From a virus, in IMG/VR virus record IMGVR_UViG_3300029106_000003, positions 1,317-65,316 of that record: DNA of 64,000 nucleotides; one strand, given 5' to 3'. Positions 8,715 through 50,898 of the stretch are shown here, piece after piece (position 1 is the stretch's first letter; each line of letters begins with the position of its first letter). A model generated the notes under the pieces. The model saw only the letters and a list, made by a program, of their open reading frames with translations, was not told the DNA's origin and ran no database searches. A program made the position numbers and the translations under genes.

Positions 8715-8732
8715 AATGTTTTGTATTTATGG

Positions 8733-10004: not shown

Positions 10005-10008
10005 AGGC

Positions 10009-20787: not shown

Positions 20788-20929
20788 GCAAAATAAATTA
20801 TATTGAGCGCAACTGTGGGGTCGAACCACAACTTTATACATGGAGTGTATATGTGCTACCGTTACACTAGATACGCAGAACACGTGGGTACGAAGCCCCC
20901 ACGTTTGGCTCTATCTACAACCTATTGAA

Positions 20930-23047: not shown

Positions 23048-24358
23048 TTAACTATCTCCATTTGTTGTTTTATATGATTCAACAGCTTTTTTGAGCTTAG
23101 CTTCATCGGCATCATTCAATTTGTTTACAGCAGCAATTAACTTATCGTCTGAAATAGTAGTCGATAAGTTTTTACCGGTTATTTTATTGAACTCTGCGAC
23201 GAAGTTTGCTTTTATGTAAGCTTGTCCCCAAATGGTGATGTTCTTATCGGTAGAATCTTTTCCCTCTTCGGTAGTGTCAATCGTTTGAGCCTCTGAGATG
23301 TCAAGAGAGTAGATTTGGTCTACGTTTTCAATAACAGGGAGAACTAATGCTTGACCACTTGTAAATTCCTGCAAAGGATCATTTTTAGAATACTTGCTGA
23401 TAAGTTTGTATTCATCTACCGTGGAATAAATTACTCCTGCTACGGGATTAGTAACTTCTGCAAGTGTGCCCCAAACCAATGCGCCAACTTCTTGTGTAGT
23501 AAGGAATATTAGTTTGTTCGCATTCCACGGTTTGTACGGAATGCGTTTACCATTTTTCTCAGAAATTACTGTACGGTCAATCTTTAAGAATGTAATTCCG
23601 TTGTTGTCATCGGCAAATGCTTCGTCAAATAATGTAGCAGTAGGAACAGGTAACTTAGTGTTGCTGTCGAATGTCTGACCTCGATAGTTGGCAACCAATT
23701 CTTTTGCCCATTGTTCTTGTCTCATTTTATTGTAAGTCGATAACGAGATTGCTATCGTTGTAATTGAGTTTCCATCTGCGTCAGCTTTTGCAATAACACG
23801 CTTTATGTCATCAGAGGAAATAGTTCCAGCTGTTTCTACACCAAAGCTATTTTGCGGTAAATAGTTGAAATTTATGCGCAATCCAGTTCCTGTATTGTTT
23901 TCATCTTCAACGATTACAACTCCATCAGATAAAGCAGTTAAAAAGTTTGCTTCGTTCTTTTCATCGATACCAACAGAGCAAGCTACCGCATCGTTGGTTA
24001 GCTTGTTAGCTATATTAGTGAACGCAGCTCCTTGAGCTTTCATGATGTTGATTGTGTTGATCTGAGTCTCACGAAGAATTTTTTTCATTCCGACCTTTGG
24101 CAATGTACCATTTGCGTGTGCAATGGAGTCTCTCATCTTGGGAGGGAGAGGTGAGTCCATTGCTACCATGTCGGCCGCAACATAAGTTGTGTTAACTGAT
24201 GCACTTTCCCACTTTTGGTCTGCGGAATATTCTTTGCGAAGCATTGTCTTGTGAAGATATGTAAGCTGATTGCCTCGCTTACCATTGATTCTCTCGATGA
24301 TGGTTTGAAGTTTCGGGAAAATCTTTCTGATGTATTCAATAAATAGTGATTCTTTCAT
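23048..24358 (-). CDS. major capsid protein
   Basis: 436 aa following scaffold-like acidic protein, in TerL-scaffold-capsid order. Confidence 0.55.
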   Translation of the reverse strand: MKESLFIEYIRKIFPKLQTIIERINGKRGNQLTYLHKTMLRKEYSADQKWESASVNTTYVAADMVAMDSPLPPKMRDSIAHANGTLPKVGMKKILRETQINTINIMKAQGAAFTNIANKLTNDAVACSVGIDEKNEANFLTALSDGVVIVEDENNTGTGLRINFNYLPQNSFGVETAGTISSDDIKRVIAKADADGNSITTIAISLSTYNKMRQEQWAKELVANYRGQTFDSNTKLPVPTATLFDEAFADDNNGITFLKIDRTVISEKNGKRIPYKPWNANKLIFLTTQEVGALVWGTLAEVTNPVAGVIYSTVDEYKLISKYSKNDPLQEFTSGQALVLPVIENVDQIYSLDISEAQTIDTTEEGKDSTDKNITIWGQAYIKANFVAEFNKITGKNLSTTISDDKLIAAVNKLNDADEAKLKKAVESYKTTNGDS

Positions 24359-29376: not shown

Positions 29377-31464
29377 TTACTCCTTTCTAGGTTCGTTACC
29401 ATATTTCTGTACAAATGCTTTTAAAATCTCATCTAAATTTCCACGAATACCTGAATCTTGAATATAGTGAAGTTTACCAACGCATCTTTCATGTAACTTG
29501 AATACTCCCCGATACTTCATACTTACGGGCTTATCAGTAAACACAGAAGTGGCAATTATACCACATTCATGCTTGTATCTTATATTCAATTCCTCTTTAA
29601 ATTCAGTTGAAAGCACACCTGTAATAAGTAATCTGCTTAGCTTTGGTATAGTATGGTCTATCACAAAATCTGACTTCATCCAAACTGCATCCATGCCGTA
29701 TTTGCTGACTTTTAAGAAATCAAACATACAAGCTCCAAATACGTAATTATCTAAGAACCATAAATAGCAGAATGGAGCCGAGCCTAATACTATACCTTTC
29801 TTCAAATATATCATACGTAGATAATCTATCTCTGACATAGAAGCACGCATAAAACGAAATTTGCTATTTTCAGAAATGGAATAATCATCTGGTAAACGTT
29901 TGTACTTTAATGGAGTAATAGCACGTTTATTAAAACTGCTATCACCAGTACTACTTACATTGGAATAAATATAAGTTCTCTGGTCTTTGAATACCTCTCT
30001 GCGTCCCATGAAACCATGTTGCGACAATGCCATGTAATTCACCTGCTCTTCATCTATCTCAGAATATTTTGTACGGATTCTTTCTTGCCAACCGAAATCA
30101 TTCAACAAGAAGCGTTGTAAAGCATTGCTTGTAGCTTTCATACCGGAATGAAACTCATTCTGATAAATCAAAATATCATTTTCATTGCAATTAAGTATAG
30201 CATCCGAAATATCAGCACAATACAGAACTTCAATGTTCTTTGATTTCAGATTATCAACGAGTTTCTGATAACGTTCTGTGTATTTCTTCTTGTAGTAATC
30301 TAAACGGGACACGAAGTCATCATATAGTGACTTATGGTAAATATCCTGTGAGTTCTTATGCTTTTTTATGGCATTGAAAAGATGAATAACAGCTACCATT
30401 TCGGAAGGATTGTCCGACTGTAAATCCATGAAACTATACTCGTCGTTGAAACGTAGCTCTTTTATCTCTCCCTTAATAGCTTTATACATAAGATAGATAA
30501 AATACTCTTTCGTATATACCTTTATCTCACGGTTAGTAAGCACTTGTTCTATATCCATGTAGTATGAGTTTACCACATGGGCGACATCAAATCTTGAAGC
30601 CTCTTTTTTGATGAAAGAAAGCATCCGGTTTGACTTCTTGAACATAGAGCCTACTACCGTAACATTATCCGAGTGTTCTGCCGCCCAAAGTAGCGGTTTA
30701 TGTCTTTGGGGAACTTTGGAATAGTCAATATGAAACACCTCAAGACACTTATCAATTGTGGAGAGTTGCTTATACTCTTCTATATTTTCATGCAGGTAGG
30801 CATACTCTACAAATGAATACATGAATTTGATTGTCTCCAATACTTTATCAAAGTTCCATGAACTGTTGAAGATTCTGAACTCTGCCGTGCCAATCTTGGC
30901 AATGGAACATAAATTGAGCCAATACCTGATATGTCCCCTGTCTGAACCATTGTTGAATACTTTTAGTAGGTTGTCGATATTATCAGCTTCTAGCACACGT
31001 TTCACCACATCATATGGAGGGCTTGGCACGAGGTATTTTGTTTCCCACCACTCGGCTATATCGAATATCCGCTTGATTGGATATGCTGTATAGTAGGAAA
31101 GGACAAACATACGCTTGATAACATTCAAATCCATATCTTTGATATACAGATGTGCGTCAAAGCCTTCATTCCACATGAGGTAACTTCCTGCATCTTTCAT
31201 TGTTTTGATGAAGCCTTTCAACTCCTGTAAGTCTTCCACACAATAATGGTATGGACGAGTGTTTATCTCGCCACCAAATTGACCGTGGTGTGTGACAGCC
31301 GAACCGTCCGAGTTATTCATCATGGTTAGCTTGTTGTCCGTCCATTTATAACCGACTGGAAGGGAAATGCATTGTTTGTCTCCATCGGCAAACTCCAATT
31401 CCATGCCAAACGTGCGGTTGGCAATGTAATCAATCCACGGCTTATCTATATTCATGTTCTGCAT
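29377..31464 (-). CDS. large protein with amidoligase-like (GCS2/glutamine-synthetase-fold) N-terminal domain
   Basis: N-terminal RTFGMELEF (TxGxExE first strand of carboxylate-amine ligase fold), HH pair; about 400 aa of unassigned C-terminal sequence; overlaps neighbours at both ends. Confidence 0.4.
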   Translation of the reverse strand: MQNMNIDKPWIDYIANRTFGMELEFADGDKQCISLPVGYKWTDNKLTMMNNSDGSAVTHHGQFGGEINTRPYHYCVEDLQELKGFIKTMKDAGSYLMWNEGFDAHLYIKDMDLNVIKRMFVLSYYTAYPIKRIFDIAEWWETKYLVPSPPYDVVKRVLEADNIDNLLKVFNNGSDRGHIRYWLNLCSIAKIGTAEFRIFNSSWNFDKVLETIKFMYSFVEYAYLHENIEEYKQLSTIDKCLEVFHIDYSKVPQRHKPLLWAAEHSDNVTVVGSMFKKSNRMLSFIKKEASRFDVAHVVNSYYMDIEQVLTNREIKVYTKEYFIYLMYKAIKGEIKELRFNDEYSFMDLQSDNPSEMVAVIHLFNAIKKHKNSQDIYHKSLYDDFVSRLDYYKKKYTERYQKLVDNLKSKNIEVLYCADISDAILNCNENDILIYQNEFHSGMKATSNALQRFLLNDFGWQERIRTKYSEIDEEQVNYMALSQHGFMGRREVFKDQRTYIYSNVSSTGDSSFNKRAITPLKYKRLPDDYSISENSKFRFMRASMSEIDYLRMIYLKKGIVLGSAPFCYLWFLDNYVFGACMFDFLKVSKYGMDAVWMKSDFVIDHTIPKLSRLLITGVLSTEFKEELNIRYKHECGIIATSVFTDKPVSMKYRGVFKLHERCVGKLHYIQDSGIRGNLDEILKAFVQKYGNEPRKE

Positions 31465-33204: not shown

Positions 33205-33426
33205 ATTCTTGGGTTGTATATAACTTCATATACATTTTGTGTTAAATCTGCCGAGCGTATTCCCGGCAGACTTAAACACAAATTCAATCATTCTTCAAGC
33301 TACTTACAAGAACACTTATGCAATTCTTCGGCTTCTTTCAGTCGTGTCAGATAGCAATTTCTATCACCCCGTAAACTGCACAAGCTTTAATGTTCTTGCT
33401 TTTGCTTATCGCTACTATAAGGGTTG

Positions 33427-33496
33427 AGCGGAAACAGGGAATCGAACCCCACTCTTTGGTTGGAATGCCAACGCTCTGCCGATGAGCTATTTCCGC
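33427..33496 (-). tRNA. tRNA-like gene with atypical anticodon arm (TCC/TTC region; possible 8-nt loop)
   Basis: GCGGAAATAGCTCATCGGCAGAGCGTTGGCATTCCAACCAAAGAGTGGGGTTCGATTCCCTGTTTCCGCT: good acceptor, D and T arms (TTCGATT) but anticodon stem-loop cannot be folded as canonical 5-bp/7-nt. Confidence 0.5.
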
Positions 33497-33574
33497 AATA
33501 TGGGCAGCCTGCAAACCGTTTATCAGAATTTCCACTGCCCTTCCTTGTACTTCGGTCGTTATTTCTTATCTCTG

Positions 33575-33647
33575 AGGTTGAAGTGGGATTCAAACCCACG
33601 AATAACGGTTTTGCAGACCGTTGCGTTAATCACTTCGCCATTCAACC
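33575..33647 (-). tRNA. tRNA-Cys (GCA)
   Basis: GGTTGAATGGCGAAGTGATTAACGCAACGGTCTGCAAAACCGTTATTCGTGGGTTTGAATCCCACTTCAACCT: acceptor 7 bp, anticodon stem ACGGT/ACCGT, loop CTGCAAA, T-loop TTTGAAT. Confidence 0.7.
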
Positions 33648-38695: not shown

Positions 38696-39457
38696 ATGAA
38701 CGAGGAAATAACAAAGCTATTACTTCAATGCGACACGTTGAAAGCCCGTTTGTTGGGGCTGCGCCCATTACCACCGGATGCCCTGCAAAAGATAGAGAAT
38801 GCGTTTGCCATTGAATACACCTATGAAAGCAACCGGATCGAGGGAAATACGCTCACACTGCAAGAAACGGAGTTAGTAGTGAACGAGGGGGTTACTATCG
38901 CCGGAAAGTCAATGCGGGAACACCTTGAAGCGATTAACCACGTTGAAGCGATAGACTACATAAAGGACTTTGCAAAGGGAGGTATGGAAATATCGGAGCG
39001 CACAATCAAGGAAATACACGCTATTGTGCTACATGGCATAGACAGAGAGAATGCCGGACGTTATCGGGGCGTGCCTGTTATGATTTCGGGAAGTACACAT
39101 GTCCCTCCACAGCCGTATTTGATACAACCACAAATGGAGGCTTTTATGACAAGGTTTTCCGGAATGGAGGAGCAGGGCATTCACCCGGTGCTCATTGCGG
39201 CTTATCTTCATGATGAGTTGGTACGAATACACCCGTTTATAGACGGGAACGGGCGCACATCTCGGCTTCTGATGAATCTATACTTACTCCGCAACGGTTA
39301 TACGCTGGTAAATCTCAAAGGCAGCAACGAGGACAAAATAAGCTATTACAAGGCACTGGAAGCCTCTCATACGGAGAACAATCCGGCAGAGTTCCAAAAG
39401 GTCGTTATACGGGCTGAAATAGAATCTTTAAGCCGGTATCTCTCAATTGTAGGATAG
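38696..39457 (+). CDS. Fic/DOC family protein (class II, auto-inhibited)
   Basis: HPFIDGNGRTSR catalytic motif; N-terminal SNRIEG inhibitory (S/T)xxxE(G/N) motif. Confidence 0.8.
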   Translation: MNEEITKLLLQCDTLKARLLGLRPLPPDALQKIENAFAIEYTYESNRIEGNTLTLQETELVVNEGVTIAGKSMREHLEAINHVEAIDYIKDFAKGGMEISERTIKEIHAIVLHGIDRENAGRYRGVPVMISGSTHVPPQPYLIQPQMEAFMTRFSGMEEQGIHPVLIAAYLHDELVRIHPFIDGNGRTSRLLMNLYLLRNGYTLVNLKGSNEDKISYYKALEASHTENNPAEFQKVVIRAEIESLSRYLSIVG

Positions 39458-39616
39458 TATTGTCTGGATTTTAAAGATTATGAATGAAGCAATGATTTCA
39501 TTTGTAACTCGTTTAAGTTTATTTATTACCTGACACGACCTAAATTTAAAGTATAAGGAGACAAAAAAAAGGAGGGCGTTTTGCGTCCTCCTCGTTATGG
39601 ATCCTGCTTTATATAC

Positions 39617-39949
39617 TTACCACAAAGCAACCTTTCCGCCTATTCCCAAATCAAGGGTGGCCGTTGTAATTCCCAAAGCCTTAAAAACTTTGCTCATAGT
39701 AGGAAGTGTTATTATACACTTACCGCTTTCAAGTTTGGATATTTGCGACTTCTTTACACCTACTTTAGCCCCTAACTCTTCCTGTGTGAGGTTCTGTTTG
39801 AGCCTTTCTGCCTTGATAGCCTCTCCAATGTAATAAGCCTGCAAATCATCTTTGAGTTGAGCTTCCATAGCGTCCCTTTCGGGAGTGCCTTTTTCTCCCC
39901 AAACCTCATCTACTACCACGCTAAGTGGAGTTAAGTTCATCTTTGCCAT
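39617..39949 (-). CDS. higA: HigA-like HTH antitoxin
   Basis: LTQEELGAKVGVKKSQISKLESGK XRE HTH; immediately downstream of HigB-like gene. Confidence 0.6.
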   Translation of the reverse strand: MAKMNLTPLSVVVDEVWGEKGTPERDAMEAQLKDDLQAYYIGEAIKAERLKQNLTQEELGAKVGVKKSQISKLESGKCIITLPTMSKVFKALGITTATLDLGIGGKVALW

Positions 39950-39951
39950 AG

Positions 39952-40320
39952 CTATTTGTTTTTATCGTTGAAGTATTCTATTCTCAATTTCTCCGCCTTT
40001 TCTATCTCCTTTTTAGGCGTTTTCTGTGTCTTTTTCACTATCCCGTGAGTGGCTACTACCAAAGCCTCTATTTCCGTGTCCCAAAAAGCAAACAGGCGAT
40101 AACATACCCCGTTAAAGAGCGTCCGAAACTCCCATATATCGGAGTTCTCCAACTTCTTGAAGAGTTCCTTATCTATTTCCCCTCCCTCCACTTTAAGGAG
40201 ATTATAGGTTATTTTCTTTTGCGCCTTTTCTGGTAAGGAAGAAACAAACTCCCTTGCTGCGTCCATAAATGCTATTTTTATTCTTCGTCCGCTCATAAGG
40301 TTCAAATTATTACTCTGCAA
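39952..40320 (-). CDS. higB: HigB/Gp49-like RelE-family toxin
   Basis: IWEFRTLFNGVCYRLFAFWDTE...VVATHGIVKKTQKTPKKEIEKAEKLRIEYF matches Gp49/HigB family. Confidence 0.65.
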   Translation of the reverse strand: MQSNNLNLMSGRRIKIAFMDAAREFVSSLPEKAQKKITYNLLKVEGGEIDKELFKKLENSDIWEFRTLFNGVCYRLFAFWDTEIEALVVATHGIVKKTQKTPKKEIEKAEKLRIEYFNDKNK

Positions 40321-40486
40321 AGATATACAAAAGTTTCCATAAAAGCAAACTTTTGCGAGGATTTATTAGCTTGATAATTGGCTGACCCCTCCTACTTGTA
40401 AGCTCGGAGGGGAGATGTTCAGGAAATTGGGATCCGATATATTATAAACATCGGTATCTTTATATTAATGCTTAAAATATTACGTT

Positions 40487-40786
40487 TCATATCGCCTTAA
40501 AATCCAATCGGCCTAAATTGTCATTTATAGACTTAATGATACTTTCCTGTATCAAGGTTCCGCATTGGGTTGTTAGTTGTATAAAGTGATCTGTATCATT
40601 ATCTGATACAATTCCGTACTTGTTCTTCCAGTTGCAAAAAGAGTTCTCTATATCTCGCAATCCTGCCAACATGATTAATAACTCCCTTGTCTGTCCACTG
40701 ATGACTGCGTTACGCATGGTATCGACGCTACGATGTTCGATTACTTCTACTGTCTGCTCATCTTGTTTTAATTCGGTTGTTTCCAT
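40487..40786 (-). CDS. hypothetical protein
   Basis: 99-aa ORF. Confidence 0.35.
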   Translation of the reverse strand: METTELKQDEQTVEVIEHRSVDTMRNAVISGQTRELLIMLAGLRDIENSFCNWKNKYGIVSDNDTDHFIQLTTQCGTLIQESIIKSINDNLGRLDFKAI

Positions 40787-40992
40787 ATAAAAAAAGTTTA
40801 TTGTTTAACGATGTTAGGAATAGCGGGAATCCTCCCGGACACGTCCGCTACCGGTGGGATAGCTTACTTTCACAAGCGGCTGCCCCGTCTATAATTTAAC
40901 AAACATATAAAAGCACCCTATTAGGGTAGGGTAACCCGGAGCGGATAAACCGCCCCTTTGGATTTATAATAACTTTATGGTTATAGCTGATA

Positions 40993-41817
40993 TTATGCCG
41001 AGAGTTTGGTATTGAACAATTCAATGACAAACTTTCTACCTGATTCGGTCCAATACATGTGCTCTCTTGATTTCTGTACTCCGTTATCCATATAAGGGTA
41101 GGGGACATGTTTGGTAAATCCTTTACTGCGGTATTTGGCCGTGAGGAAGTAAACAGAAGATTGTCTGTATTGAACTCCCCATTCACATAGTAGTTTGTTC
41201 AGCTTTATAGCCGATACACCTAAGAATGCTGCTATCATGTTTGTCGTCACAAGTCCTTCACTCGACATGATTTCATCGTAACATTTACCTTTGGGGGCGA
41301 GGACCTTTATAGTATCGTCCTTTATGGATATTTCCTCGTCTTTTCTCTCGATGATAATTTGTTTCTGGGCATTTTCAGTTTCGAGCTGTTTTAATCGTTC
41401 TTCTCTTTTGGCAAGAGTGGCTTGTGCAATGGTTAGTGCACGTGCCATGATTTCTTCTGGTGTGTCTTCTTGCTTGGTGGAGATGTAGCCGCCTGTCTTT
41501 CGGATTGACGGAAGGACTTCACTTGTTATCCATTTGCGAAATGATTTTGCTTCTTGCTTCCTACTATCAAGAATAACATCATACATTCCGTCTTCATTAA
41601 CGAATAACATTTGTTGTATGCCTCCTGTTGTTTCAAGGGGGTAAGTTGAAATTACCTCCTTACTAAGTCTCTGATTTACGCCTTTTGATGATAATCCAAG
41701 ACATCTGCATAAATCACCTAAGCAAAATTTAGGATCATCGCTTGTACCGGCAGTACGGATTTCACCGAATTTAGGTGAATTAAAAATTTGAATGTTAGAT
41801 TGCATATCTGTAAGCAT
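40993..41817 (-). CDS. Bro-N / KilA-C antirepressor
   Basis: N-terminal FGEIRTAG...PKFCLGDLCRCLGL (Bro-N); C-terminal antirepressor KilAC-like region. Confidence 0.65.
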   Translation of the reverse strand: MLTDMQSNIQIFNSPKFGEIRTAGTSDDPKFCLGDLCRCLGLSSKGVNQRLSKEVISTYPLETTGGIQQMLFVNEDGMYDVILDSRKQEAKSFRKWITSEVLPSIRKTGGYISTKQEDTPEEIMARALTIAQATLAKREERLKQLETENAQKQIIIERKDEEISIKDDTIKVLAPKGKCYDEIMSSEGLVTTNMIAAFLGVSAIKLNKLLCEWGVQYRQSSVYFLTAKYRSKGFTKHVPYPYMDNGVQKSREHMYWTESGRKFVIELFNTKLSA

Positions 41818-42063
41818 TTAAAGATATGTTATAGGCAAACATAAAAAGCGGCTGCCATATACGCTGCTTACAGATAATGGGTTCCACTCCACAGAGCGAA
41901 ATATCTACGTATAGGCAACCGCCAATATATAAAAGTATAGGCATAAAAAAAGCCCAACTTTCTATTGAGCAAATTAACCGCTTGCCCTGCGAAATGGTTT
42001 ACCATTATCATGTAAGCATTACAAAAGTATTGAATTTTACGAGGTAATGCTAATTATTGGGCA

Positions 42064-42110
42064 CAAAATTAGAGCATGGAATCTTGAAAGTATATGAATT
42101 TCATACATAA
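42064..42110 (-). promoter_or_regulatory. palindrome-type promoter (degenerate copy)
   Basis: GAAAGTATATGAATTTCATACATAA with TAATTTTG box 14 nt downstream on minus strand. Confidence 0.35.
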
Positions 42111-42253
42111 TTCAACATTATTAACCTTTGAGGGCTATTATACGATTTCCTAAATCAGTGAATCGTAAGGCAGTATTAAAAGATACGAAAAGTAAGCACA
42201 TATGTAAATATTGGTAAGTATCTTGGTATCTATTGAAATTCATTTTATCTGAA

Positions 42254-43168
42254 TCATAATAGAGCTAATGCTTGTGTTACAATCGGTGTTAGTTGATTTG
42301 CTGCTATTCCCGTAGCAATACCTTGTATAGCGTTCAATGCCAATTTTAAGGTTTTCTTACCCCAAGATGGTTTATTACACTCTTCTTTTATCGTATCAAT
42401 TGCCATTTTTAGGTCTGAATTATCTATATCACTTGCTTTTTCTACAAGCTGAGAGATTACACTTTGTAGTTTTTCTTTTTGATCTTGGTCTGATATATAT
42501 AATGTAAGATCACTGTCTGAAATATTTCCTGTATTGACATTACCATCTCCTGTATTAGCTACTACTGAATTAATATAATAATTATTCATAATATTACTTA
42601 TCACTTTTTGTTCTTCAATTTTCGAAAAATCAATACCTGCATCAATTTTTTCGTCTAAATCTAGAAAAAATGATAACAGCTTTGACTTAAATTTATCAAC
42701 AATACACACCAATGAAGACACTGAGAACTCCTGCCATACTTTTTCTACATTCCCAGAAACATATTTGTTTACTTCGGTATATGCCATTGATGGAGAATTA
42801 ATAGATACATTGCCAGTTTTTTGGCTACTGCCTATATTTTCTATTTCGTTTAGTGAATGAACAATGCACACATGACTCATGCAATCATTTATGATAGCAT
42901 TATCAAAAATACCTTGAGGAATTATGATGTTTTGATACATTCCCACAAATGGTTGTGAAACATTGGCCTTTACAATAGCATTGAGAATTCTATAATCTGG
43001 AAGGTTTTCTGCATCTGGATATCCATTTTGTTCGTTTCTTATCCACATTTCAAAGTCATTATTACCCAATTTGGATGCGACTATCTGAGCTTTCAATAAT
43101 ATACCTTTAATCGGCTTATCATCGCCTAAGTCTTGAATGATTTTGTTTATTATCTCTTTCATAAGCAT
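42254..43168 (-). CDS. AbiTii-like abortive-infection family protein (candidate)
   Basis: N-terminal ILLKAQIVASKLGNNDFEMWIRNEQNGYPD resembles AbiTii N-domain; AT-rich island. Confidence 0.45.
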   Translation of the reverse strand: MLMKEIINKIIQDLGDDKPIKGILLKAQIVASKLGNNDFEMWIRNEQNGYPDAENLPDYRILNAIVKANVSQPFVGMYQNIIIPQGIFDNAIINDCMSHVCIVHSLNEIENIGSSQKTGNVSINSPSMAYTEVNKYVSGNVEKVWQEFSVSSLVCIVDKFKSKLLSFFLDLDEKIDAGIDFSKIEEQKVISNIMNNYYINSVVANTGDGNVNTGNISDSDLTLYISDQDQKEKLQSVISQLVEKASDIDNSDLKMAIDTIKEECNKPSWGKKTLKLALNAIQGIATGIAANQLTPIVTQALALL

Positions 43169-44232
43169 TATTTCATTCGAAAAATATTCATAGGAATAAC
43201 CTTCGGTTTACAGACAAACCAATTAATAAAATCAGCCTTATTAATGCGCATCACACTCATTAAATCCTCATCGGTATATCCTAATTCGTTTCGATACAAA
43301 TTTAGTGTTTCTTCCCACATCGTAGGATGTTCTACAGGAAGAGGTATTGGTTCAATTCTACTATATCCTTTTTTGGAAAAGTATATTTGCAAATTACGAT
43401 ACTGCTGATATGTAATAGCGTCCAAGTCCCTAGCCCTTCTAACTAAAGCATGCATAGATACTCGCCATTTTCTTTTGAGTATACCTAATATTTGTACATT
43501 CAAATTTTGCAACATTGGAAAAATTTCCTCCTCTGGCATTAAAAATTCTGAAGCAAATTCATCCGCTTGACGTTCTGCATCATCAGAAGAACAAGGCGGA
43601 TTTTCTAAATGCATCACCAAATGTCCTAACTCATGAGCCATTGAGAAGCGAATTCTGTCATTAGGCATTTGATTGTTAATAAACATTACTTTCTTATCGG
43701 AATCTGTTATTGTTGTTAATCCATCTATTTTATCGGTTCCAAAATCAAAACGAATAATAATAACACCGTTATTTTCAAGCAATGTTGATAAATTGGGAAC
43801 TGCACCATTGAAAACTTTTAGTTTATATCGTATATTACGAGCAATTTCTTTAGCTGACAAATTTTCATTTGGGATATAATTACCTAAAGTGTATTCTGGC
43901 AATTCAACAGCAGACATTAATTCATCAATGATCGCTTTAAAAATCTTTACTTTGGCAACAAAAGAATCTATTATTTTATTTGTAACAGTAAGTTTCTTTC
44001 TATAATAGAGATGCCCTAGTGGAGAAATCCCTTCACTACGCATAAAAAATGTTTCGGGAAAATCGTAGTATTTACACAATTTTTCCATTATATCTCTTGG
44101 TAGCTCTTGAAGTCCGTGCTCGGCTTTCGATAAAGACGATTGAGATATTCCTACAGCCTCAGCAACTTCTTTTTGCGTTTTTTGCCTTAACAATCGAACT
44201 GTTTCAAGTAATGAGAAATTTATATTATTCAT
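43168..44232 (-). CDS. XRE HTH fused to ImmA/IrrE (M78) metallopeptidase
   Basis: HTH QKEVAEAVGISQSSLSKAEHG; HEXXH MAHELGHLVMH. Confidence 0.75.
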   Translation of the reverse strand: MNNINFSLLETVRLLRQKTQKEVAEAVGISQSSLSKAEHGLQELPRDIMEKLCKYYDFPETFFMRSEGISPLGHLYYRKKLTVTNKIIDSFVAKVKIFKAIIDELMSAVELPEYTLGNYIPNENLSAKEIARNIRYKLKVFNGAVPNLSTLLENNGVIIIRFDFGTDKIDGLTTITDSDKKVMFINNQMPNDRIRFSMAHELGHLVMHLENPPCSSDDAERQADEFASEFLMPEEEIFPMLQNLNVQILGILKRKWRVSMHALVRRARDLDAITYQQYRNLQIYFSKKGYSRIEPIPLPVEHPTMWEETLNLYRNELGYTDEDLMSVMRINKADFINWFVCKPKVIPMNIFRMK

Positions 44233-44834
44233 ACAGCCTCTTTATTGTGGTTCGTTTTCTTAAATCTGGGTTTCTGTGCAACAATTTCTTTGTTTTCACT
44301 TTCTATTTCTACAACATCTACTATTTGTTGTGTCGGAATAGAATATTTCCATAAAGTGGTTTGTCCTTTAATATATTGCAGACTTAGCGTATTTATATTT
44401 TCCCTAAATGTATCTAATGTATATACTATGGAAATGACATGGCATCCTAATTCTTGATTTCGAATTTTATCCTCCTGCTTAGTCCTATTTCGAGTGCTAT
44501 CTGCCAATTTTATGATAAAAACATAACCTTGATATTCAAAAAATAATCGTTCATTTCCAGATATATTTGAAGTAAAAACAAAATGTTCTGAGGTCATCTG
44601 AGCAGAAAGTTCATTTTTTATTGCATTATATATATCTTCATGAAGACAATGAGATATTACGCTCATCGAGTTGAGCCCTTCGCGAAATTTTTCCTGTGTT
44701 TTACTTAAACCTGTTGTAACTCCAATTCTTAAACATTCTTCAAATTTATCGGTCAATACGGATGCTTTAAATTTATCCGAATTGAATTCATGTTCAGCAG
44801 GAAACACTGAGCATTGTATAATTTCTTTTGTCAT
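44229..44834 (-). CDS. hypothetical protein co-transcribed with HTH-ImmA
   Basis: 201 aa, ATGA overlap with downstream gene. Confidence 0.4.
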   Translation of the reverse strand: MTKEIIQCSVFPAEHEFNSDKFKASVLTDKFEECLRIGVTTGLSKTQEKFREGLNSMSVISHCLHEDIYNAIKNELSAQMTSEHFVFTSNISGNERLFFEYQGYVFIIKLADSTRNRTKQEDKIRNQELGCHVISIVYTLDTFRENINTLSLQYIKGQTTLWKYSIPTQQIVDVVEIESENKEIVAQKPRFKKTNHNKEAV

Positions 44835-45232: not shown

Positions 45233-45562
45233 TTATCCGTATTTTATCGAGCAAGCCACAAACAAGGCCATAGCGCCGAATATGGCACTTGCTACTGCGA
45301 TGATGGTAGTTATAATCCATTTCCAGTCTATGGGATTGCGCAAGTTAGGATTGGTGGCAAGATAAATTTTTCCATATTTCGTTATGCGGACATCTTCAAG
45401 TTCATGCCCCTCGTTCCATAGACCTTTGACAAGACCTAATCTTTCCAGCGAGTCTACGCACGAAATGAATATATGGTGCGGATAAGTGTTTGGGCAGACA
45501 ATCCCGCTGCTGATTAAACGCAACACTTGCTTCTCCTGTTTTGATAGCTTGATTTGCTTCAT
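45233..45562 (-). CDS. small membrane protein
   Basis: C-terminal TM WKWIITTIIAVASAIFGAMALFVA. Confidence 0.4.
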   Translation of the reverse strand: MKQIKLSKQEKQVLRLISSGIVCPNTYPHHIFISCVDSLERLGLVKGLWNEGHELEDVRITKYGKIYLATNPNLRNPIDWKWIITTIIAVASAIFGAMALFVACSIKYG

Positions 45563-45572: not shown

Positions 45573-46010
45573 CTACAATGACAGCAAAAACTTATACGCT
45601 TTAAGATACTTGTTCAATCTCGGTAAGTCTTCCTCTATTATTTGAGGTAAACGGGTTACGTCCAAATTGTCCTCCAAGTCGTGCAGCTTTACTTGTCTTC
45701 CAATAGGATTCAATCTACACCGTTTTATGAAATCGTCATAGATCTCATCATCGTTACGAGTGACAGAAAGTATAGCATCCACAATATTATGAGGAAAGCC
45801 TTCCATTAGTAAATATTCAGCAGTAACTTCGGTATCTTCTATCGTGTCATGCAATAAAGCTACTATGCGCTCCTCATCTGTTTTGCATCGGTTTGCCACA
45901 CGGATAGGGTGGAAGATGTAGGCTGCTCCAGCTTTATCGGTTTGTCCGCTATGGGCTTTGACGGCGATTTGAAGGGCTTTTTCTAATAGTGAATTTTTAG
46001 TACATGTCAT
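45573..46010 (-). CDS. HD-domain small alarmone hydrolase (SpoT/Mesh1-like)
   Basis: AHSGQTDKAGAAYIFHPIRVA...VALLHDTIEDT = RelA/SpoT hydrolase HD signature in a 145-aa standalone protein. Confidence 0.7.
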   Translation of the reverse strand: MTCTKNSLLEKALQIAVKAHSGQTDKAGAAYIFHPIRVANRCKTDEERIVALLHDTIEDTEVTAEYLLMEGFPHNIVDAILSVTRNDDEIYDDFIKRCRLNPIGRQVKLHDLEDNLDVTRLPQIIEEDLPRLNKYLKAYKFLLSL

Positions 46011-46227
46011 ATTCTGATTTGGGTATTTCTATACCTCCTAATATTATCTCGCAAACGGTTTCATTTGACTGTGATATTTCCTTTTCATTGCGTCTTCCTT
46101 TGTGCTTAATGAAAGCATTTGTCTTTCCATTTTCAAGAACAAGACGTATTGCAGATTCTTCAAAATCGTCTAAAATATAGACTTCTTCACCCGCTTGTAA
46201 TTTTTTTTGTAGGATATTTGGGTTCAT
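45997..46227 (-). CDS. hypothetical small protein
   Basis: 76-aa ORF between MuF and HD genes. Confidence 0.35.
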   Translation of the reverse strand: MNPNILQKKLQAGEEVYILDDFEESAIRLVLENGKTNAFIKHKGRRNEKEISQSNETVCEIILGGIEIPKSEYDMY

Positions 46228-46251
46228 ATTTATATGTAAAGATAATTATTT

Positions 46252-47871
46252 TTATCGGAAATGACTATAATATTCAATAGATTTTTCTACTATTTTTAGT
46301 GCTTCATTACTTGATTTATCGAGTATGCGCCATTGCTCATAATATTTATGTCCGAGACCACCTTCCATTCCTGTCTCATTATGTATTTCTTCCCAACGTT
46401 TTTTCCCAAGAATACGTTTCGCATCTTCCGGCCTTTCTTTTGCAAAAATCATACGTTCCGTATTAACTTGTATTTCCGCAGTAAGACCATTTGTGGTTCT
46501 TATGTTTACGATGTTTCCACTATATACCATGAATGATTCTGGTTTTTGCCTTTTAAGGCGTAAGAAGCCTTCCGTTTTGTACAGTTCTTCTAACACATCT
46601 TCTATTCGGGACTTCGGAACGATTATGGTTGTTCTTACAGCACCTTTAATATCGTATGGAGTTATACCTTCTGTGATGACTTTTCTTGTGATAGAAGTTG
46701 TACTCTTGAAATTAATAGGCGTAACATAACCACCATTTTTTATTGCGATCCGTTCTGCTATGGACTGTACTTCATCTCCCACTGATGATGCTCGTTTTAC
46801 AATTTCCGAAATGGAACTTTCAACTGTTATTTTCTGATAAACGGATTTATTATCACGCAAAAAGTATGGTAAAGTATTACGTTTTTTTGCTGTGCTGATG
46901 CGCTCTTGATTATCTAATACCCACTTTTTGAAAGCGTCCGGTACGTCTTTAACTTCGTTCACGCTTGCTGTCGTGGCTTCATTCCGACCGTCCCATTCCC
47001 AAAATTCTTCTTCGGTTTTTAGAATGGGTATCTTGTAACACCGGCAAAGGGGATGCCAACCGGTCCATTGGAAGTCTTTCGGGTACTTCCCAGCTAGTAT
47101 ATCGCAAATGTCTTGGAAAGGCTTTCCGTTACAAGTATGATTGTTGCTCAACTTGATTTCATATCCCACCACGAAGTCCATCTGCTGCCAGCGTAGATTT
47201 TCCGCTTGGCGGTATGCCATATTGATTTCGGAAGCAGCCAAACGGATAGAACGATACTCGCAATCCATTGCCCGTGATGCTTTTCCGAACCTTTCCTTGT
47301 AATCTTTTTGTAGTTGCGGGAAATCGAGCAGATATTTGGAGATTTGCTTACTTAATGTAATTGCACTCGTACCTTTTTGAATGGCACATGATATAGCTTC
47401 TTCAAGTTCTTGCTTATACAGAGTCGATTGATTCCACAACTTATCTGATATGGTAAATCCTTTATCCTTACGTTGCTGAAACGCTTTCAATGCATCATTA
47501 TTGGGCTGGTATAGGATTTCGTATTTCTCCTTTCCTATGGTTGCGCCATAAGTTTGCAATACTTTGTTGGCAAGAAGATCTTGAACTTCGTTGCTGTTTT
47601 TCCATTCTTCAGAAGTTCCACTATATATTACAGATCCGATGTCCTCAACGAACCGTTCTTGTAAGTCTCTTATCCGTTTCCTTGTTTGGGGATAATCCGA
47701 CCACATAAACGTCCTATCACTATCAATGGTAAAATCGGTAATTCCGACTATTTTAGCCGCCTCTAAATTCAAATCCTCGTATATGGATTCCACAAGCATG
47801 ACGTACTTGGCGAGCCGTTTATTCAGCTCGCCGTACTTGCGTTTCTGATTTGGAGTTTTTGGCTTTGCCAT
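46252..47871 (-). CDS. MuF/SPP1 gp7-like head morphogenesis protein with C-terminal RelA/SpoT-like nucleotidyltransferase (toxSAS-like) domain
   Basis: Phage_Mu_F motif NHTCNGKPFQDICDILAGKYP...WHPLCRCY; C-terminal YDIKGAVRTTIIVP and GLTAEIQVNTERMIFAKE resemble D-x-x-G-x-R and E-I-Q-I-R-T synthetase motifs. Confidence 0.6.
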   Translation of the reverse strand: MAKPKTPNQKRKYGELNKRLAKYVMLVESIYEDLNLEAAKIVGITDFTIDSDRTFMWSDYPQTRKRIRDLQERFVEDIGSVIYSGTSEEWKNSNEVQDLLANKVLQTYGATIGKEKYEILYQPNNDALKAFQQRKDKGFTISDKLWNQSTLYKQELEEAISCAIQKGTSAITLSKQISKYLLDFPQLQKDYKERFGKASRAMDCEYRSIRLAASEINMAYRQAENLRWQQMDFVVGYEIKLSNNHTCNGKPFQDICDILAGKYPKDFQWTGWHPLCRCYKIPILKTEEEFWEWDGRNEATTASVNEVKDVPDAFKKWVLDNQERISTAKKRNTLPYFLRDNKSVYQKITVESSISEIVKRASSVGDEVQSIAERIAIKNGGYVTPINFKSTTSITRKVITEGITPYDIKGAVRTTIIVPKSRIEDVLEELYKTEGFLRLKRQKPESFMVYSGNIVNIRTTNGLTAEIQVNTERMIFAKERPEDAKRILGKKRWEEIHNETGMEGGLGHKYYEQWRILDKSSNEALKIVEKSIEYYSHFR

Positions 47872-47877
47872 TGCGTA

Positions 47878-48240
47878 TTATTTATTTTCAACCCTGTCAG
47901 GTGCTGGCATTTCCAATAAACGAATAGCTTTAATTGTTTCTTTACCCTCTAGTATTGCTTTACATAAGCGGTGGTATCCATCGGCGATTTGTCCTACATC
48001 ATCAAGAATAATAGGATATTCAAGAGAACATTGATTCACTCGTTTGCACTGAAATATAAAACTATGAAGTTGATTACACTCAAACGGCTCTGCTGTCAAG
48101 TCAATATTCCATAAGGGCATATCAAGTATAGGGTATTCTTTTACTTTTGCAAAGTCATAGAGTGTTTGAGCTTTCCAGATCTTGTCTCCACGATGATATT
48201 CACTTTCGCTAAAAGTTATGTTATCTATAGGAACCTGCAT
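47878..48240 (-). CDS. hypothetical protein, weak ParB-like motif
   Basis: ILDDVGQIADGYHRLCKAI. Confidence 0.3.
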   Translation of the reverse strand: MQVPIDNITFSESEYHRGDKIWKAQTLYDFAKVKEYPILDMPLWNIDLTAEPFECNQLHSFIFQCKRVNQCSLEYPIILDDVGQIADGYHRLCKAILEGKETIKAIRLLEMPAPDRVENK

Positions 48241-48241
48241 A

Positions 48242-48589
48242 TTATTCTTTTTTTATATATACTTTGATTTCACCGGTAACATGGAGTTCATCACCAACTT
48301 TTTCAACGGAGTATTCTATTAGCCCCCTCTGGTTGATTGAGCTTACAATTGATTGGAGAACTTCATCCTTTACTTCTTTGATGAACATTTCATCTGATTT
48401 TCGATTAGACCAACCTTCATCAAGTTTCTTCTTTTTTCGGTAATCCTTGATTTCTTTTTTAGTTCGGGCAAGGCAGATACCAAGCTTCTTTGCTTCGTAG
48501 TTATCAACTCGTTCAATACTACTCAATCTTTCTTGTGGATTGATTTTTTCTGCTAATCTAATAAGCCAGTTTGATATTTTTGTCTTCAT
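48242..48589 (-). CDS. hypothetical protein
   Basis: 115-aa ORF. Confidence 0.35.
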   Translation of the reverse strand: MKTKISNWLIRLAEKINPQERLSSIERVDNYEAKKLGICLARTKKEIKDYRKKKKLDEGWSNRKSDEMFIKEVKDEVLQSIVSSINQRGLIEYSVEKVGDELHVTGEIKVYIKKE

Positions 48590-48664
48590 GATTTTAAGTT
48601 TTAAGCCAGCAGCGTAAACATCTGCTTACGCTGCTTTAACCTTTTTTACAGCTTGGCAGATAGG

Positions 48665-49165
48665 CTATTGTACAATTTCCCAGTCTTCTGCAAACACATC
48701 ACTGATGGATGGTACCCACGAATCAGCACGTCCCGTATTTTCGTTATAGATAAGGCATTGGCTTGTATAGTCAATAAAACCTTTTCCTTTCAGAATAAGG
48801 TCTTTTGCTGATTGAGGAAGCGATTGCATCTTGGGAATGGTATCGCTTTCAATATGTGCAGGCACTTGCTTGAATACCGTCAGGCCTTTGCCGTTCCAGC
48901 CGTTTCTACGGATAGCCCCACCTTGCTTCAAAACTTCGATAGCATCACCGAAACACATAGGAGTTTCTTTCTTGACTTCTCGATATGATTCTTCAAACAA
49001 TTCTTTGGGGGACCAACTTTCATAGCCATATTCAGCACGAGTGTGATATCCAAGCTTGCAAGATTCATGCTCTCCTATTTCACTTTTTACCAAACCTTTA
49101 CGGCAAGCTTCGCCTAATGTCATAGGTTCTGCTTCAATCTGTTTTGTGCTAATGTACTTTTTCAT
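48665..49165 (-). CDS. DUF2829-like phage protein
   Basis: FGDAIEVLKQGGAIRRNGWNGKGL signature. Confidence 0.45.
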   Translation of the reverse strand: MKKYISTKQIEAEPMTLGEACRKGLVKSEIGEHESCKLGYHTRAEYGYESWSPKELFEESYREVKKETPMCFGDAIEVLKQGGAIRRNGWNGKGLTVFKQVPAHIESDTIPKMQSLPQSAKDLILKGKGFIDYTSQCLIYNENTGRADSWVPSISDVFAEDWEIVQ

Positions 49166-49186
49166 GATAGTATATTTATTTACAAA

Positions 49187-49477
49187 TTAAACATCTTCCT
49201 CTTCATAAGCCATCTTTGCACTCATGACACCAACCGAACTTAGCATCCTGATAGAAAGCCCCTTTTGTACGTCAAGCTCAAAAATCATATTGTCATTGAA
49301 TTGAGCGGCAGGGTATTGATACAATAGCGCATAATCCATTCCTTCCAGCTTTGCGTATATACTAAGTGTGCCACTCTTCTCTCTGTCTATCTGCATTACA
49401 CATTTTCCAACAGAAGTAAACTCACAGGAATAGCCCTGTTTTTCTTTACTAAATTCTAGTACATCAGTTTTTGCCAT
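49187..49477 (-). CDS. hypothetical protein
   Basis: 96-aa ORF. Confidence 0.35.
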   Translation of the reverse strand: MAKTDVLEFSKEKQGYSCEFTSVGKCVMQIDREKSGTLSIYAKLEGMDYALLYQYPAAQFNDNMIFELDVQKGLSIRMLSSVGVMSAKMAYEEEDV

Positions 49478-49497
49478 AATATTTATATTTTAGATTA

Positions 49498-50898
49498 TTA
49501 TTCCGGTTCTTCGAATATATTGCTTATCCTGCTTCTGGAAGCATCTGCATCTTCTTTTTGGATTTGGGCAAGAGTTTCTTGTGGATCAGTAGAGATACCT
49601 AAGTTCTTGATGGCCTCTAATTGGCTGACAACTGCTTTTCCACCACTTGCTGTAACCCATTTTTCTATTTCTGACTTTTCATCATTTTGGATAAACGGAG
49701 TTATGATGTGCTCAACCTCAACATTATCTACTTCATTTTTCCAAGAAACATTCATCATTTTTAGAAAGGCTTTGATTACGCTACATTCACGTTCAAATGC
49801 TTCTATCCATGCACCACTTTCATCTCCAACCTTTAAATGAGCGTCAGTAAGTAAAGTCTGCCTTGCATCAAATCCGATATTGCCAAGAGACTTCATGTTT
49901 TCGAAGGAAATATCCGGCATTTGTGATTGTGACCAGAACAACTCAACAAGGGTATCGACATGATATTTTAATGCCTCGATAGATTGTGCCCATGAAACAT
50001 AGGACACGTCCCCGTTTTGTTCTACTCGGTAAACTCTACGGCTTTCTCCTTTATCTTCTCCTCCTTTTATGCCACCTGCTATTTTTAGGATAGGAGCGGA
50101 GTTATATGCTATGACATCGCTATTGCGTGAGAGGGTATATTCGATTTCTTTTCTGATATAGGAAAGACCGTGATAAATGGGAACAGGACGATAAACGTAT
50201 ACTCCAGGTATTTTCAGAATAACGACCGGTTCTGATTTTACTAATTCCCAGCCGTTTCCCTGTTGTTTCCATTTATAATGAATGTTTGCCGTGTATGTCT
50301 CGAAATAGGTAACTTCTTCATTTTTGGCCTTTTTTGTGTATTCAAAAGACATTGCGATCATATCGCCAAGCTCATCAAGTAGAGGGTATAAGCTAACACC
50401 GTCCATTGGTGAGTAGGTTTTGCATTTTAGCTTATATTTACTTTTAAAGCCGTATAGAGTGTTGGGATTCTCAACTGTGTACCAAATGGTGAACACTTCG
50501 CATGAAGCAAAGTAAGCATTGCCTCGCTTAATATTCTCACTGTCAATACGGGCATACTTATATATCGCTTCAATCGCTTTCGCAATACTTTGGCGGGTTT
50601 CATTGTCTTCTATATTGTGATATACACGTTTAACCGGGATAGCGAACATGAATTCAGTCATTCGCTTGGTGAGGAGTTTTTCAAGTCCGATGTAGATACG
50701 GGAAGCTTTTTCTGTATCTCCATTAGAGCGGATCTTATCTTTACGGGTAACTGTGTCAGATACTATATCATGTTCTGTTGGTTCGTAGTCTTTGAGAAGT
50801 TTATCCCATGAGGGGACTGTTACAGACTTTTCTTTCAAATCGTTGATTATGTTATCAACGGGCCGCGTACTGTCTAAGATAGAGGTGATTTCGTCCAT
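49498..50898 (-). CDS. portal protein
   Basis: 466 aa, SPP1 gp6-like composition, located upstream of MuF-like gene. Confidence 0.6.
   Translation of the reverse strand: MDEITSILDSTRPVDNIINDLKEKSVTVPSWDKLLKDYEPTEHDIVSDTVTRKDKIRSNGDTEKASRIYIGLEKLLTKRMTEFMFAIPVKRVYHNIEDNETRQSIAKAIEAIYKYARIDSENIKRGNAYFASCEVFTIWYTVENPNTLYGFKSKYKLKCKTYSPMDGVSLYPLLDELGDMIAMSFEYTKKAKNEEVTYFETYTANIHYKWKQQGNGWELVKSEPVVILKIPGVYVYRPVPIYHGLSYIRKEIEYTLSRNSDVIAYNSAPILKIAGGIKGGEDKGESRRVYRVEQNGDVSYVSWAQSIEALKYHVDTLVELFWSQSQMPDISFENMKSLGNIGFDARQTLLTDAHLKVGDESGAWIEAFERECSVIKAFLKMMNVSWKNEVDNVEVEHIITPFIQNDEKSEIEKWVTASGGKAVVSQLEAIKNLGISTDPQETLAQIQKEDADASRSRISNIFEEPE

Follow-up and report, generated by a model that had tools for sequence, protein, structure and literature searches.

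The window analysed here, a stretch of 64,000 nucleotides of viral DNA, carries a three-gene cassette that is, with a probability of about 0.78, the known polymorphic toxin-immunity module Apk2-Tis1/IapK-Aph1 in the version of a Barnesiella-type (Bacteroidales) phage, with a toxin domain that appears catalytically dead or strongly attenuated. Direct support comes from homology and fold, from gene order, from conserved residues and from the recurrence of the allele in nature, and (p)ppApp synthesis, toxicity and both immunity mechanisms are known from experiments on homologues (PMC10083569, PMC12226406). Since the system corresponds to the published Apk2-Tis1/IapK-Aph1 module, the nucleotide is taken to be (p)ppApp and the hydrolase to be (p)ppApp-specific. 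The genes are as follows.

46252-47871, minus strand: gene for the MuF-Apk2 fusion protein, 539 aa (head-morphogenesis plus (p)ppApp-synthetase-type toxin domain); open reading frame, PHROG 7625 at E=8e-93
45997-46227, minus strand: gene for the Tis1-fold (IapK-type) immunity protein, 76 aa; starts 24 nt past the toxin stop; 14-nt overlap with the next gene
45573-46010, minus strand: Aph1, putative 145-aa HD-domain (p)ppApp-specific pyrophosphohydrolase; PDB 7SMG at E=6e-76

The MuF-toxin gene and the HD gene at 45573-47871 had been observed in a preliminary description of the sequence, and this observation was confirmed. Its interpretation stands in part: the architecture was borne out, whereas the system is not new, a gene had been overlooked, the proposed Pfam check gave no match and the quoted motifs are damaged. 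The evidence speaks neither for nor against phage counter-defence, the alternative raised there. The HD gene does lie two genes downstream, but the 76-aa immunity gene in between had been missed.

The MuF domain of characterised members is the part associated with the phage head and portal, and the same would hold here. The Tas1-like RelA/SpoT-fold domain at the C-terminus would transfer pyrophosphate from ATP to the 3'-OH of ATP, ADP or AMP, by which (p)ppApp is made, ATP drained and growth stopped in characterised members. The small Tis1-fold protein would bind the toxin and occlude its active site, and Aph1 would hydrolyse (p)ppApp to return usable nucleotides. In the window allele, two changes, D410G where a catalytic Asp is otherwise invariant and G449V where the acceptor-site motif G-Y-S-G has an invariant Gly, would leave the toxin dead or strongly attenuated, with MuF head function and both immunity genes maintained. 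We infer that MuF-Apk2 would be packaged into the virion and injected, a putative route for every Apk2.

The 539-aa protein is about 73% identical over its full length to the Bacteroides Apk2 A0A373G481 (sequence from the supplement of PMC12691689), and proteins 97-99% identical to it are assigned to Barnesiella intestinihominis by NCBI. Its head-related part and the neighbouring portal gene are located as follows.

46837-47871, minus strand: MuF/SPP1-gp7-like N-terminal domain, aa 1-345; PHROGs 7625, 1657, 115 and 4728
47035-47142, minus strand: NHTCNGKPF...WHPLCRCY motif, within the MuF domain
46849-46872, minus strand: cassette junction, aa 334-341, LPYFLRDN; similarity to MuF proteins with other toxins stops just past it
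49498-50898, minus strand: SPP1-type portal gene, four genes upstream of the MuF gene; Pfam SPP1_portal at E=3e-33, PHROG 64

The PHROGs matched by the MuF domain are head morphogenesis or minor head protein families, and the N-terminal part of phrog_16625 (Bxa) is matched as well. Pfam and NCBIfam searches with the MuF domain returned no match, and nothing was found for the full 539-aa protein in Pfam at E<=0.1, for its two halves at E<=10, or in NCBIfam. The portal gene near the MuF gene places the latter in a phage head module, the setting of the MuF-type N-domain in Apk2 systems; the window also has genes for terminase, major head protein and tape measure, at other places. Megablast found nothing in the INPHARED phage collection that matched the 3.1-kb region, and a promoter and terminator scan of the block did no better than on shuffled sequence. 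At one related locus (L001), the MuF N-domain is shared up to ...LPYFLKDN and is followed by a Bxa-like ADP-ribosyltransferase cassette in the place of Apk. Half-coverage homologues of 878 and 687 aa were considered as toxin-domain swaps and rejected, as they are the same protein with an intein insertion.

The features of the C-terminal part are these.

46255-46821, minus strand: Apk (Tas1-like) RelA/SpoT-fold toxin domain, aa 351-539
46642-46644, minus strand: codon 410, GGT (Gly), GAT (Asp) in the common allele; family-invariant Asp column
46525-46527, minus strand: codon 449, GTA (Val), GGA (Gly) in the common allele; syn3-type G-Y-S-G motif

The earlier proposal of a polymorphic toxin of the MuF type whose C-terminus has a RelA/SpoT fold (toxSAS-like) was right, as judged from the PHROG and Tas1 matches and from experiments on the B. 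caccae homologue (PMC10083569). The domain has the RSH synthetase fold and is of the Tas1/Apk type found in Apk2, so the absence of such similarity, which would have spoken against the proposal, was not encountered. The suggested HMM check against RelA_SpoT (PF04607) failed: neither the full protein (E<=0.1) nor the C-terminal 190 aa alone (E<=10) matched any Pfam family. Homology is detected only with Tas1 and at the level of fold. The catalytic motifs quoted earlier do resemble those of RelA/SpoT, but they are not intact, with G410 and V449 in place of an invariant Asp and Gly. For annotation, this is a caution that resemblance to a 'D-x-x-G-x-R' motif can conceal a mutated active site.

Among 144 diverse relatives reaching down to 36% identity, 17 columns of the toxin domain are at least 97% conserved; the window keeps 15 of these and changes exactly D410 and G449. 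Both columns are invariant in this set (D in 144/144, Tas1 included, and G in 144/144). In alignments, G410 falls on Tas1 D327, three positions ahead of R330, on D121 of SaEAS and, by our own motif alignment, on D264 of RelSeq; SaEAS D121A is inactive (PMC12691689) and RelSeq D264G abolishes synthesis (PMC13299517). The active-site set of syn2 Asp and Arg, syn3 G-Y-x-G and syn4 E-x-Q is thus incomplete, deviating at G410 and V449. Because these residues replace the invariant catalytic Asp and the invariant syn3 Gly, the toxin is probably not active, a reading that draws on conservation and on what mutants of homologous enzymes show, rather than on mutants of Apk2. It is predicted that (p)ppApp synthesis from ATP and toxicity, both seen for the B. 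caccae, S. pneumoniae and M. haemolytica homologues (PMC10083569, PMC12226406), are lost or strongly reduced in the window allele.

It is quite unlikely that the allele has remained an active (p)ppApp synthetase which tolerates the substitutions, for instance through metal coordination by D407, and works as B. caccae Apk2-Tis1-Aph1 does. The open reading frame is fully intact, with no stop or frameshift, and R413, Y450, G452, E466 and Q468 are kept. Both immunity genes, too, are intact and conserved, which fits a toxin that still needs neutralising. D407 does sit three residues upstream of G410. Nevertheless, position 407 varies freely (D 32, K 29, E 22, Q 20) and is therefore not a conserved substitute for D410. 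Activity is also opposed by the invariance of D410 and G449, by the inactivity of the equivalent Asp mutants of RelSeq and SaEAS, and by two changes at invariant residues in one allele, along with an elevated non-synonymous fraction in the toxin domain. The window protein is modelled as folded (pLDDT 93), by AlphaFold, which is insensitive to point mutations.

The doubly substituted protein is a real allele, found on 7 contigs; on the three of these that were compared, from separate assemblies, the 2.6-kb module is within 0-1 nt of that in the window. Compared with the common allele, the toxin domain has 5 non-synonymous and 5 synonymous changes, against 8 and 45 codon changes in the MuF domain (Fisher p=0.025), the latter indicating strong purifying selection; this and the enrichment test below rest on small counts. 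Close relatives also carry substitutions at other invariant toxin residues (E466G, R413K, G452E, G505C, H508R/Y, R515C/L), and with 410 and 449 left out, 6/15 invariant positions are polymorphic vs 25/172 others (p=0.02). Among 119 distinct close relatives, drawn from the best 120 of ~3,100 homologues in an order of similarity to the query that inflates the apparent frequency of G410 and V449, column 410 is D in 103 and column 449 is G in 112. D410G alone is present in 15 of the 119 and on at least 34 contigs, intein-bearing alleles among them; so frequent an allele might be tolerated rather than null, which is a point for retained activity. The homologues found with the toxin domain are mostly fragments.

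D410G is seen on several backgrounds, and G449V on both wild-type-like and D410G backgrounds. A diversity-generating retroelement was set aside as the source of variation on the pattern of the changes: G449V arises from G to T, which is not what adenine mutagenesis gives, and the sites that vary lie scattered. It may tentatively be proposed, as a possible though doubtful scenario, that the Apk2 catalytic site has been knocked out repeatedly and independently in the gut Barnesiella phage population, with Aph1 and Tis1 left intact.

Apk2 systems have a small Tis1-like/IapK immunity gene directly after the toxin gene, and so does the window. The 76-aa protein has the Tis1 three-dimensional fold. 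It scored 20.6 bits against Tis1_ImmP (PF24154; cut-off 27, E=4.8e-4), and all 22 of its relatives (22/22) matched that family at E<=0.01, the best at 1.4e-7; a profile search of PDB sequences did not reach Tis1. In Tas1-Tis1 and Apk2-IapK, the binder occludes the acceptor-nucleotide site of the toxin (PMC10083569, PMC12226406), and by analogy the 76-aa protein is a putative binder that would block the same site.

The proposal that the HD protein is an alarmone hydrolase acting as enzymatic immunity appears right, in view of the 7SMG match and of experiments on the B. caccae homologue (PMC10083569). The 145-aa protein is near-identical over 138 aa to PDB 7SMG, '(p)ppApp hydrolase' (phmmer), has the HD-domain fold and keeps the catalytic H...HD motif (H34, H54-D55). 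It falls just below the cut-off of Pfam HD_4 (25.0 vs 27.2 bits) and matches PHROG 990 at E=2e-47. The residues D24 and R119, together with R96, D116 and K133, separate Aph from (p)ppGpp hydrolases (PMC10083569), and all of their equivalents in the window (D25, R120, R97, D117, K134) are kept. The ~88% identical B. caccae Aph1 hydrolyses pApp, ppApp and pppApp and not ppGpp (PMC10083569), and window Aph1 is by analogy a putative (p)ppApp-specific hydrolase. It is very improbable that the C-terminal domain is instead a tRNA 3'-CCA pyrophosphokinase (CapRel/FaRel2-type toxSAS) or a (p)ppGpp synthetase, with the HD protein as a general alarmone hydrolase. In a contig scan with Aph1 covering one genome per species, B. 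caccae and Barnesiella prophages were absent, and the 80 loci were for the most part unrelated HD/SpoT genes.

The block may include a fourth gene, which begins 10 nt past aph1.

45233-45562, minus strand: open reading frame, 109 aa

It is called directly past the 145-aa gene at loci L081 and L084-L086 despite mosaic flanks, and its hydrophobic C-terminus has weak matches only (DUF6486, 'smalltalk').

Aph1 differs from the common allele by 0 non-synonymous and 2 synonymous changes and so shows strict purifying selection next to a probably dead toxin. If the kept genes served mainly phage or lysogen protection rather than self-immunity, the immunity genes would persist beside a dead toxin for that reason. 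Such a role, in which Aph1 (with Tis1) would act against Apk toxins of related superinfecting phages or of T6SS, or against (p)ppApp-producing defence toxins of the host, is unlikely as the main one, although it may coexist with the best explanation. It would agree with the cross-protection by Aph1 against non-cognate Tas1 (PMC10083569), with the interchangeability of hydrolase immunities (PMC12226406), with an anti-Thoeris Tad2-like gene in the same head-gene block as the module, and with L001, where an Aph1 homologue (80% identity) lies downstream of an ADP-ribosyltransferase MuF that has its own ADP-ribosylglycohydrolase. However, retention may reflect recent inactivation or operon hitch-hiking, and most Aph1 homologues elsewhere are not phage-associated (PMC10083569).

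The module adds little in itself. MuF-RelA-like toxins were catalogued already in 2017, the Apk2-Tis1-Aph1 cassette is known biochemically and structurally (2023-2025), and Apk2-like MuF toxins with adjoining Aph1 have been noted across Bacteroidales. The role of MuF toxins is debated, as injected weapons, colonisation factors or lysogen burdens, and recurrent catalytic substitutions beside a strictly conserved (p)ppApp hydrolase in a widespread gut prophage would be a natural experiment on it. The data suggest that toxin activity is dispensable or costly for the window phage and that immunity is valuable of its own. If repeated inactivation is real, toxin activity may be selected against in lysogens and immunity kept against the toxins of relatives, with an 'immunity-only' state as the end point; another possibility is that the dead domain has taken on a non-catalytic role in the virion.

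The closest known system is Apk2-BcTis1-Aph1 of a Bacteroides caccae ATCC 43185 prophage (BACCAC_01148/01147/01146; Ahmad et al., PNAS 2023, PMC10083569), whose three genes match those of the window in kind and order and likewise lie in the head module of a Bacteroidales prophage. Its toxin domain is ~72% and its Aph1 (PDB 7SMG) ~88% identical to those of the window, the Tis1 fold is common to both, and all Aph1 specificity residues are kept in the window. It differs in host lineage (Bacteroides vs Barnesiella-type) and in the MuF motif (WHPNDLCY vs WHPLCRCY), and its toxin has Asp and Gly at the two positions where the window has Gly and Val, as read from a fragment in the PMC12691689 supplement assigned to A5ZE37 by list order and 96% cluster membership. 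The Apk2-IapK-Aph1 prophages of Streptococcus pneumoniae SPNA45, Mannheimia haemolytica and Pasteurella multocida (PMC12226406 and its reference 11) likewise combine MuF and adenosine 3'-pyrophosphokinase with a binder and a hydrolase; they are distant in sequence and host and are likened by description. In these, hydrolases are interchangeable, whereas binders are largely cognate-specific (PMC12226406). Tas1-Tis1 (Apk1), a type VI effector-immunity pair of Pseudomonas aeruginosa PA14 (PDB 6OX6), relies on PAAR delivery (T6SS) rather than MuF and is without an Aph1 partner, and Tas1 has D327 and the G-Y-S-G Gly, both of which the window allele lacks. In Bxa-Bsi-BAH of a Bacteroides stercoris prophage (PMC11699363), the toxin chemistry is ADP-ribosylation, in contrast to (p)ppApp synthesis. 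FaRel-ATfaRel (Jimmy et al. 2020, PMC7229694) pairs a (pp)pApp-producing RelA/SpoT-fold toxin with an adjoining small alarmone hydrolase as antidote, as in the window. Members of the toxSAS group are stand-alone small synthetases without a delivery domain, and the window toxin is the C-terminus of a 539-aa head protein; the module acts like FaRel-ATfaRel in its use of a hydrolase antidote and is not a toxSAS member.

The window is the genome of a tailed phage, or a prophage. Its portal gene, of SPP1 type, is located four genes upstream of the gene for the MuF head-morphogenesis protein. Further along on the same strand as the module are genes for a large terminase, a major head protein, a tape measure protein and a tail-fibre-like protein, with anti-repressor, KilA-N and methyltransferase genes in the rest of the window. 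Gut metagenomes are rich in proteins 97-99% identical to the 539-aa MuF product, for which the NCBI name is Barnesiella intestinihominis. In the assembly index, 432 blocks list the common allele, the usual form in relatives with Asp at 410 and Gly at 449. The tightly packed genes of the module and two neighbors are as follows.

46252-47871, minus strand: 539-aa protein
45997-46227, minus strand: 76-aa ORF, starting 24 nt past the stop of the 539-aa gene
45573-46010, minus strand: 145-aa HD protein, overlapping the 76-aa ORF by 14 nt
45233-45562, minus strand: 109-aa ORF, starting 10 nt past aph1 (the 145-aa gene)
48665-49165, minus strand: 166-aa Thoeris anti-defence Tad2-like protein (PF11195, E=3e-18), between portal and MuF

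All motifs quoted in the preliminary description were found; the HD gene was correctly placed two genes downstream, but the intervening 76-aa gene had been overlooked. The 109-aa ORF, which has a hydrophobic C-terminus and weak DUF6486/'smalltalk' matches only, directly follows the 145-aa gene also in four comparison loci (L081, L084-L086), though their flanks are mosaic, and could belong to the block as its fourth gene. Related phages vary in whether they carry the Tad2-like gene. Gene order is unusual for a head module: some 18 kb of regulatory and accessory genes stand between the portal and MuF genes (46252-50898) on one side and the genes for the large terminase (26814-28325) and the major head protein (23048-24358) on the other.

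For the N-terminal ~345 aa of the 539-aa protein, the PHROG hits are to families labelled 'head morphogenesis / minor head protein' (phrog_7625, E=8e-93) and to the N-terminal stretch of phrog_16625, the Bxa family. Pfam and NCBIfam searches of the protein recognised no family, and the proposed check against PF04607 returned nothing when the isolated C-terminus was searched against Pfam at E<=10. The predicted RelA/SpoT fold was nevertheless borne out, as the last 190 aa had a single match among solved structures, to Tas1 (6OX6_A, E=2.3e-25 over 182 residues), a (p)ppApp-synthesising type VI effector of Pseudomonas aeruginosa, indicating affiliation with the Tas1/Apk clade. In 42 of the 120 closest homologues an intein interrupts the MuF gene at an identical site, between L275 and C276 (WHPL/CRCY; window 47044-47049), either in a form of 339 aa that has a LAGLIDADG-like segment or as a 148-aa mini-intein (proteins P0046 and P0091). 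It starts with Cys, carries TPEH as block B and ends in GSN before Cys, and its N-terminal part resembles the solved intein 6ZGQ (E=2e-5); the window allele lacks it.

The overlooked middle gene is a Tis1-fold immunity gene. Its product matches PF24154 'Tis1 immunity protein' below the Pfam threshold (20.6 bits, E=4.8e-4), and 22/22 members of its family match the same model (best E=1.4e-7); a Foldseek search with the 76-aa protein did not recover the Tis1 match. The 145-aa protein is nearly identical across 138 residues to PDB 7SMG '(p)ppApp hydrolase' (E=6e-76), which is Aph1 of Bacteroides caccae. It keeps the HD motif and the equivalents of D24, R96, D116, R119 and K133, residues experimentally tied to the (p)ppApp specificity of Aph1 (PMC10083569), in agreement with its earlier description as an alarmone hydrolase.

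Compared with the consensus of 119 near-identical relatives, the 539-aa protein shows five departures, two of which, G410 (consensus D) and V449 (consensus G), fall within the motifs flagged earlier. Among 144 diverse toxin domains (36-72% identical, including Tas1), drawn from an exhaustive search yielding 593 relatives at 50% clustering, these columns are Asp in 144/144 and Gly in 144/144, as invariant as catalytic E466. Seventeen columns are at least 97% conserved, of which the window keeps 15 and alters just these two. With published Tas1 numbering equal to the PDB-chain index + 21 (checked on R330, E382, Q384, N370 and K353), R413 corresponds to Tas1 R330 and G410 to Tas1 D327 and SaEAS D121; by motif alignment, G410 also occupies the position of RelSeq D264. 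D121A 'inactivates the enzyme' in SaEAS (PMC12691689) and D264G eliminated synthetase activity in RelSeq (PMC13299517). At 449, Val stands in place of the Gly in G-Y-S-G, the syn3-type motif of the acceptor site. The residues read earlier as D-x-x-G-x-R (D407, G410, R413) do exist, but the register is off: D407 lies in a freely variable column of the 144-domain alignment and the supposed Gly is the mutation. What was quoted as a catalytic motif is a mutated active site. Toxin activity is probably lost or strongly reduced in this allele (probability about 0.75), and this copy most likely combines a functional head protein, an inactive toxin domain and two intact immunity genes.

The G410/V449 form is a real allele. 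Exactly this 539-aa sequence was found on 7 contigs; three of these, from separate assemblies, were compared at nucleotide level and differ from the window by 0-1 nt over a 2.6-kb block, with both immunity genes intact in all three. Both codon changes are single-nucleotide, GAT to GGT (410) and GGA to GTA (449). The toxin domain of a D410G allele from an NCBI assembly (P0026, locus L089) lies 3 nt from that of the window, indicating that the window haplotype is that of the D410G lineage with G449V added. A wild-type-like toxin background carries G449V as well (P0050, locus L087; 12-13 contigs), pointing either to two origins or to transfer by recombination.

Codon changes in the window relative to the common allele (synonymous, non-synonymous)
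MuF domain: 45, 8
Toxin domain: 5, 5
Tis1: 5, 3
Aph1: 2, 0

The toxin domain differs from the MuF domain in these counts (Fisher p=0.025). Furthermore, 31 distinct sequences among the 119 close relatives are altered at one or more of the 17 invariant toxin positions (D410G/N, R413K, G449V/E, G452E, E466G, G505C, H508R/Y, R515C/L), several of the changes being present on 2-12 contigs. Polymorphism affects 8/17 invariant versus 25/172 other toxin positions (p=0.003), a comparison in which 410 and 449 are favoured by the ranking of relatives on similarity to the query; without them it is 6/15 versus 25/172 (p=0.02). Being small counts from a biased sample, these figures are only suggestive of altered selection on the toxin domain.

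In locus L001 (7630-10420 of NZ_CABUOD010000003.1, a Parabacteroides MAG), the order of portal, Tad2-like gene, 120-aa gene and MuF matches the window, and past ...LPYFLKDN the MuF protein continues into an ADP-ribosyltransferase domain (Pfam E=3e-17). Next downstream comes an ADP-ribosylglycohydrolase (E=2e-37) and after it a homologue of Aph1 sharing 80% identity with that of the window, indicating that the toxin cassette was exchanged while Aph1 was kept, there as an apparent orphan immunity gene. This retention, and the strict conservation of Aph1 beside a probably dead toxin, would fit an independent protective role. The natural knock-out alleles would offer a useful lead on the cost or contribution of MuF toxins.

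Downstream of the module lies an accessory island, in place of which phages with the common toxin allele carry a SocA_Panacea gene and then the small terminase. It and other features of the window are listed below.

38696-44834: accessory island, also holding a 201-aa ORF and a Gp49/HTH pair
43168-44232: HTH + M78 (ImmA/IrrE-like) protein, in the island
42254-43168: 304-aa ORF, in the island; its L081 counterpart is annotated AbiTii
40993-41817: Bro-N/ANT anti-repressor, in the island
38696-39457, plus strand: Fic of a Fic/HTH pair, in the island
29377-31464, minus strand: 695-aa amidoligase + phage GNAT-like domain protein, just upstream of the terminase gene
20805-20876, 33426-33496 and 33574-33647, minus strand: three tRNA-like genes

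The tRNA-like genes comprise tRNA-Gly(TCC), tRNA-Cys(GCA) and a third for which an abnormal 'anticodon' of two bases was called. GC content is 0.47-0.51 at 1-4000 and 8000-12000 versus 0.32-0.41 across most of the remainder, the latter patch spanning a 1097-aa tail-fibre-like gene.

MuF-RelA-like fusions were already catalogued in 2017 (PMC5576092), and Apk2-like MuF toxins adjoining Aph1 have been noted across Bacteroidales (PMC11699363). The three-gene cluster BACCAC_01148/01147/01146 of a B. caccae prophage encodes Apk2, a MuF-fused synthetase of (p)ppApp, together with BcTis1, a Tis1-like binder, and Aph1, the hydrolase (Ahmad et al., 2023; PMC10083569). Apk2 was toxic in Escherichia coli and made (p)ppApp, BcTis1 and Aph1 each protected partially, and Aph1 cleaved pApp, ppApp and pppApp but not ppGpp (PMC10083569). 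Homologous modules in Streptococcus pneumoniae, Mannheimia haemolytica and Pasteurella multocida prophages behave similarly (PMC12226406). The supplement of PMC12691689 provided sequences for comparison: the window protein shows ~73% identity over its full length to a Bacteroides Apk2, which in its toxin domain shares 96% identity with the B. caccae protein, and ~72% identity to the B. caccae toxin fragment. The MuF toxin and hydrolase architecture proposed earlier therefore stands, and the nucleotide, which had been left open, is (p)ppApp, the module being almost certainly the characterised Apk2-Tis1/IapK-Aph1 system. The kind of system is already known; the window copy adds a member from a different Bacteroidales lineage.
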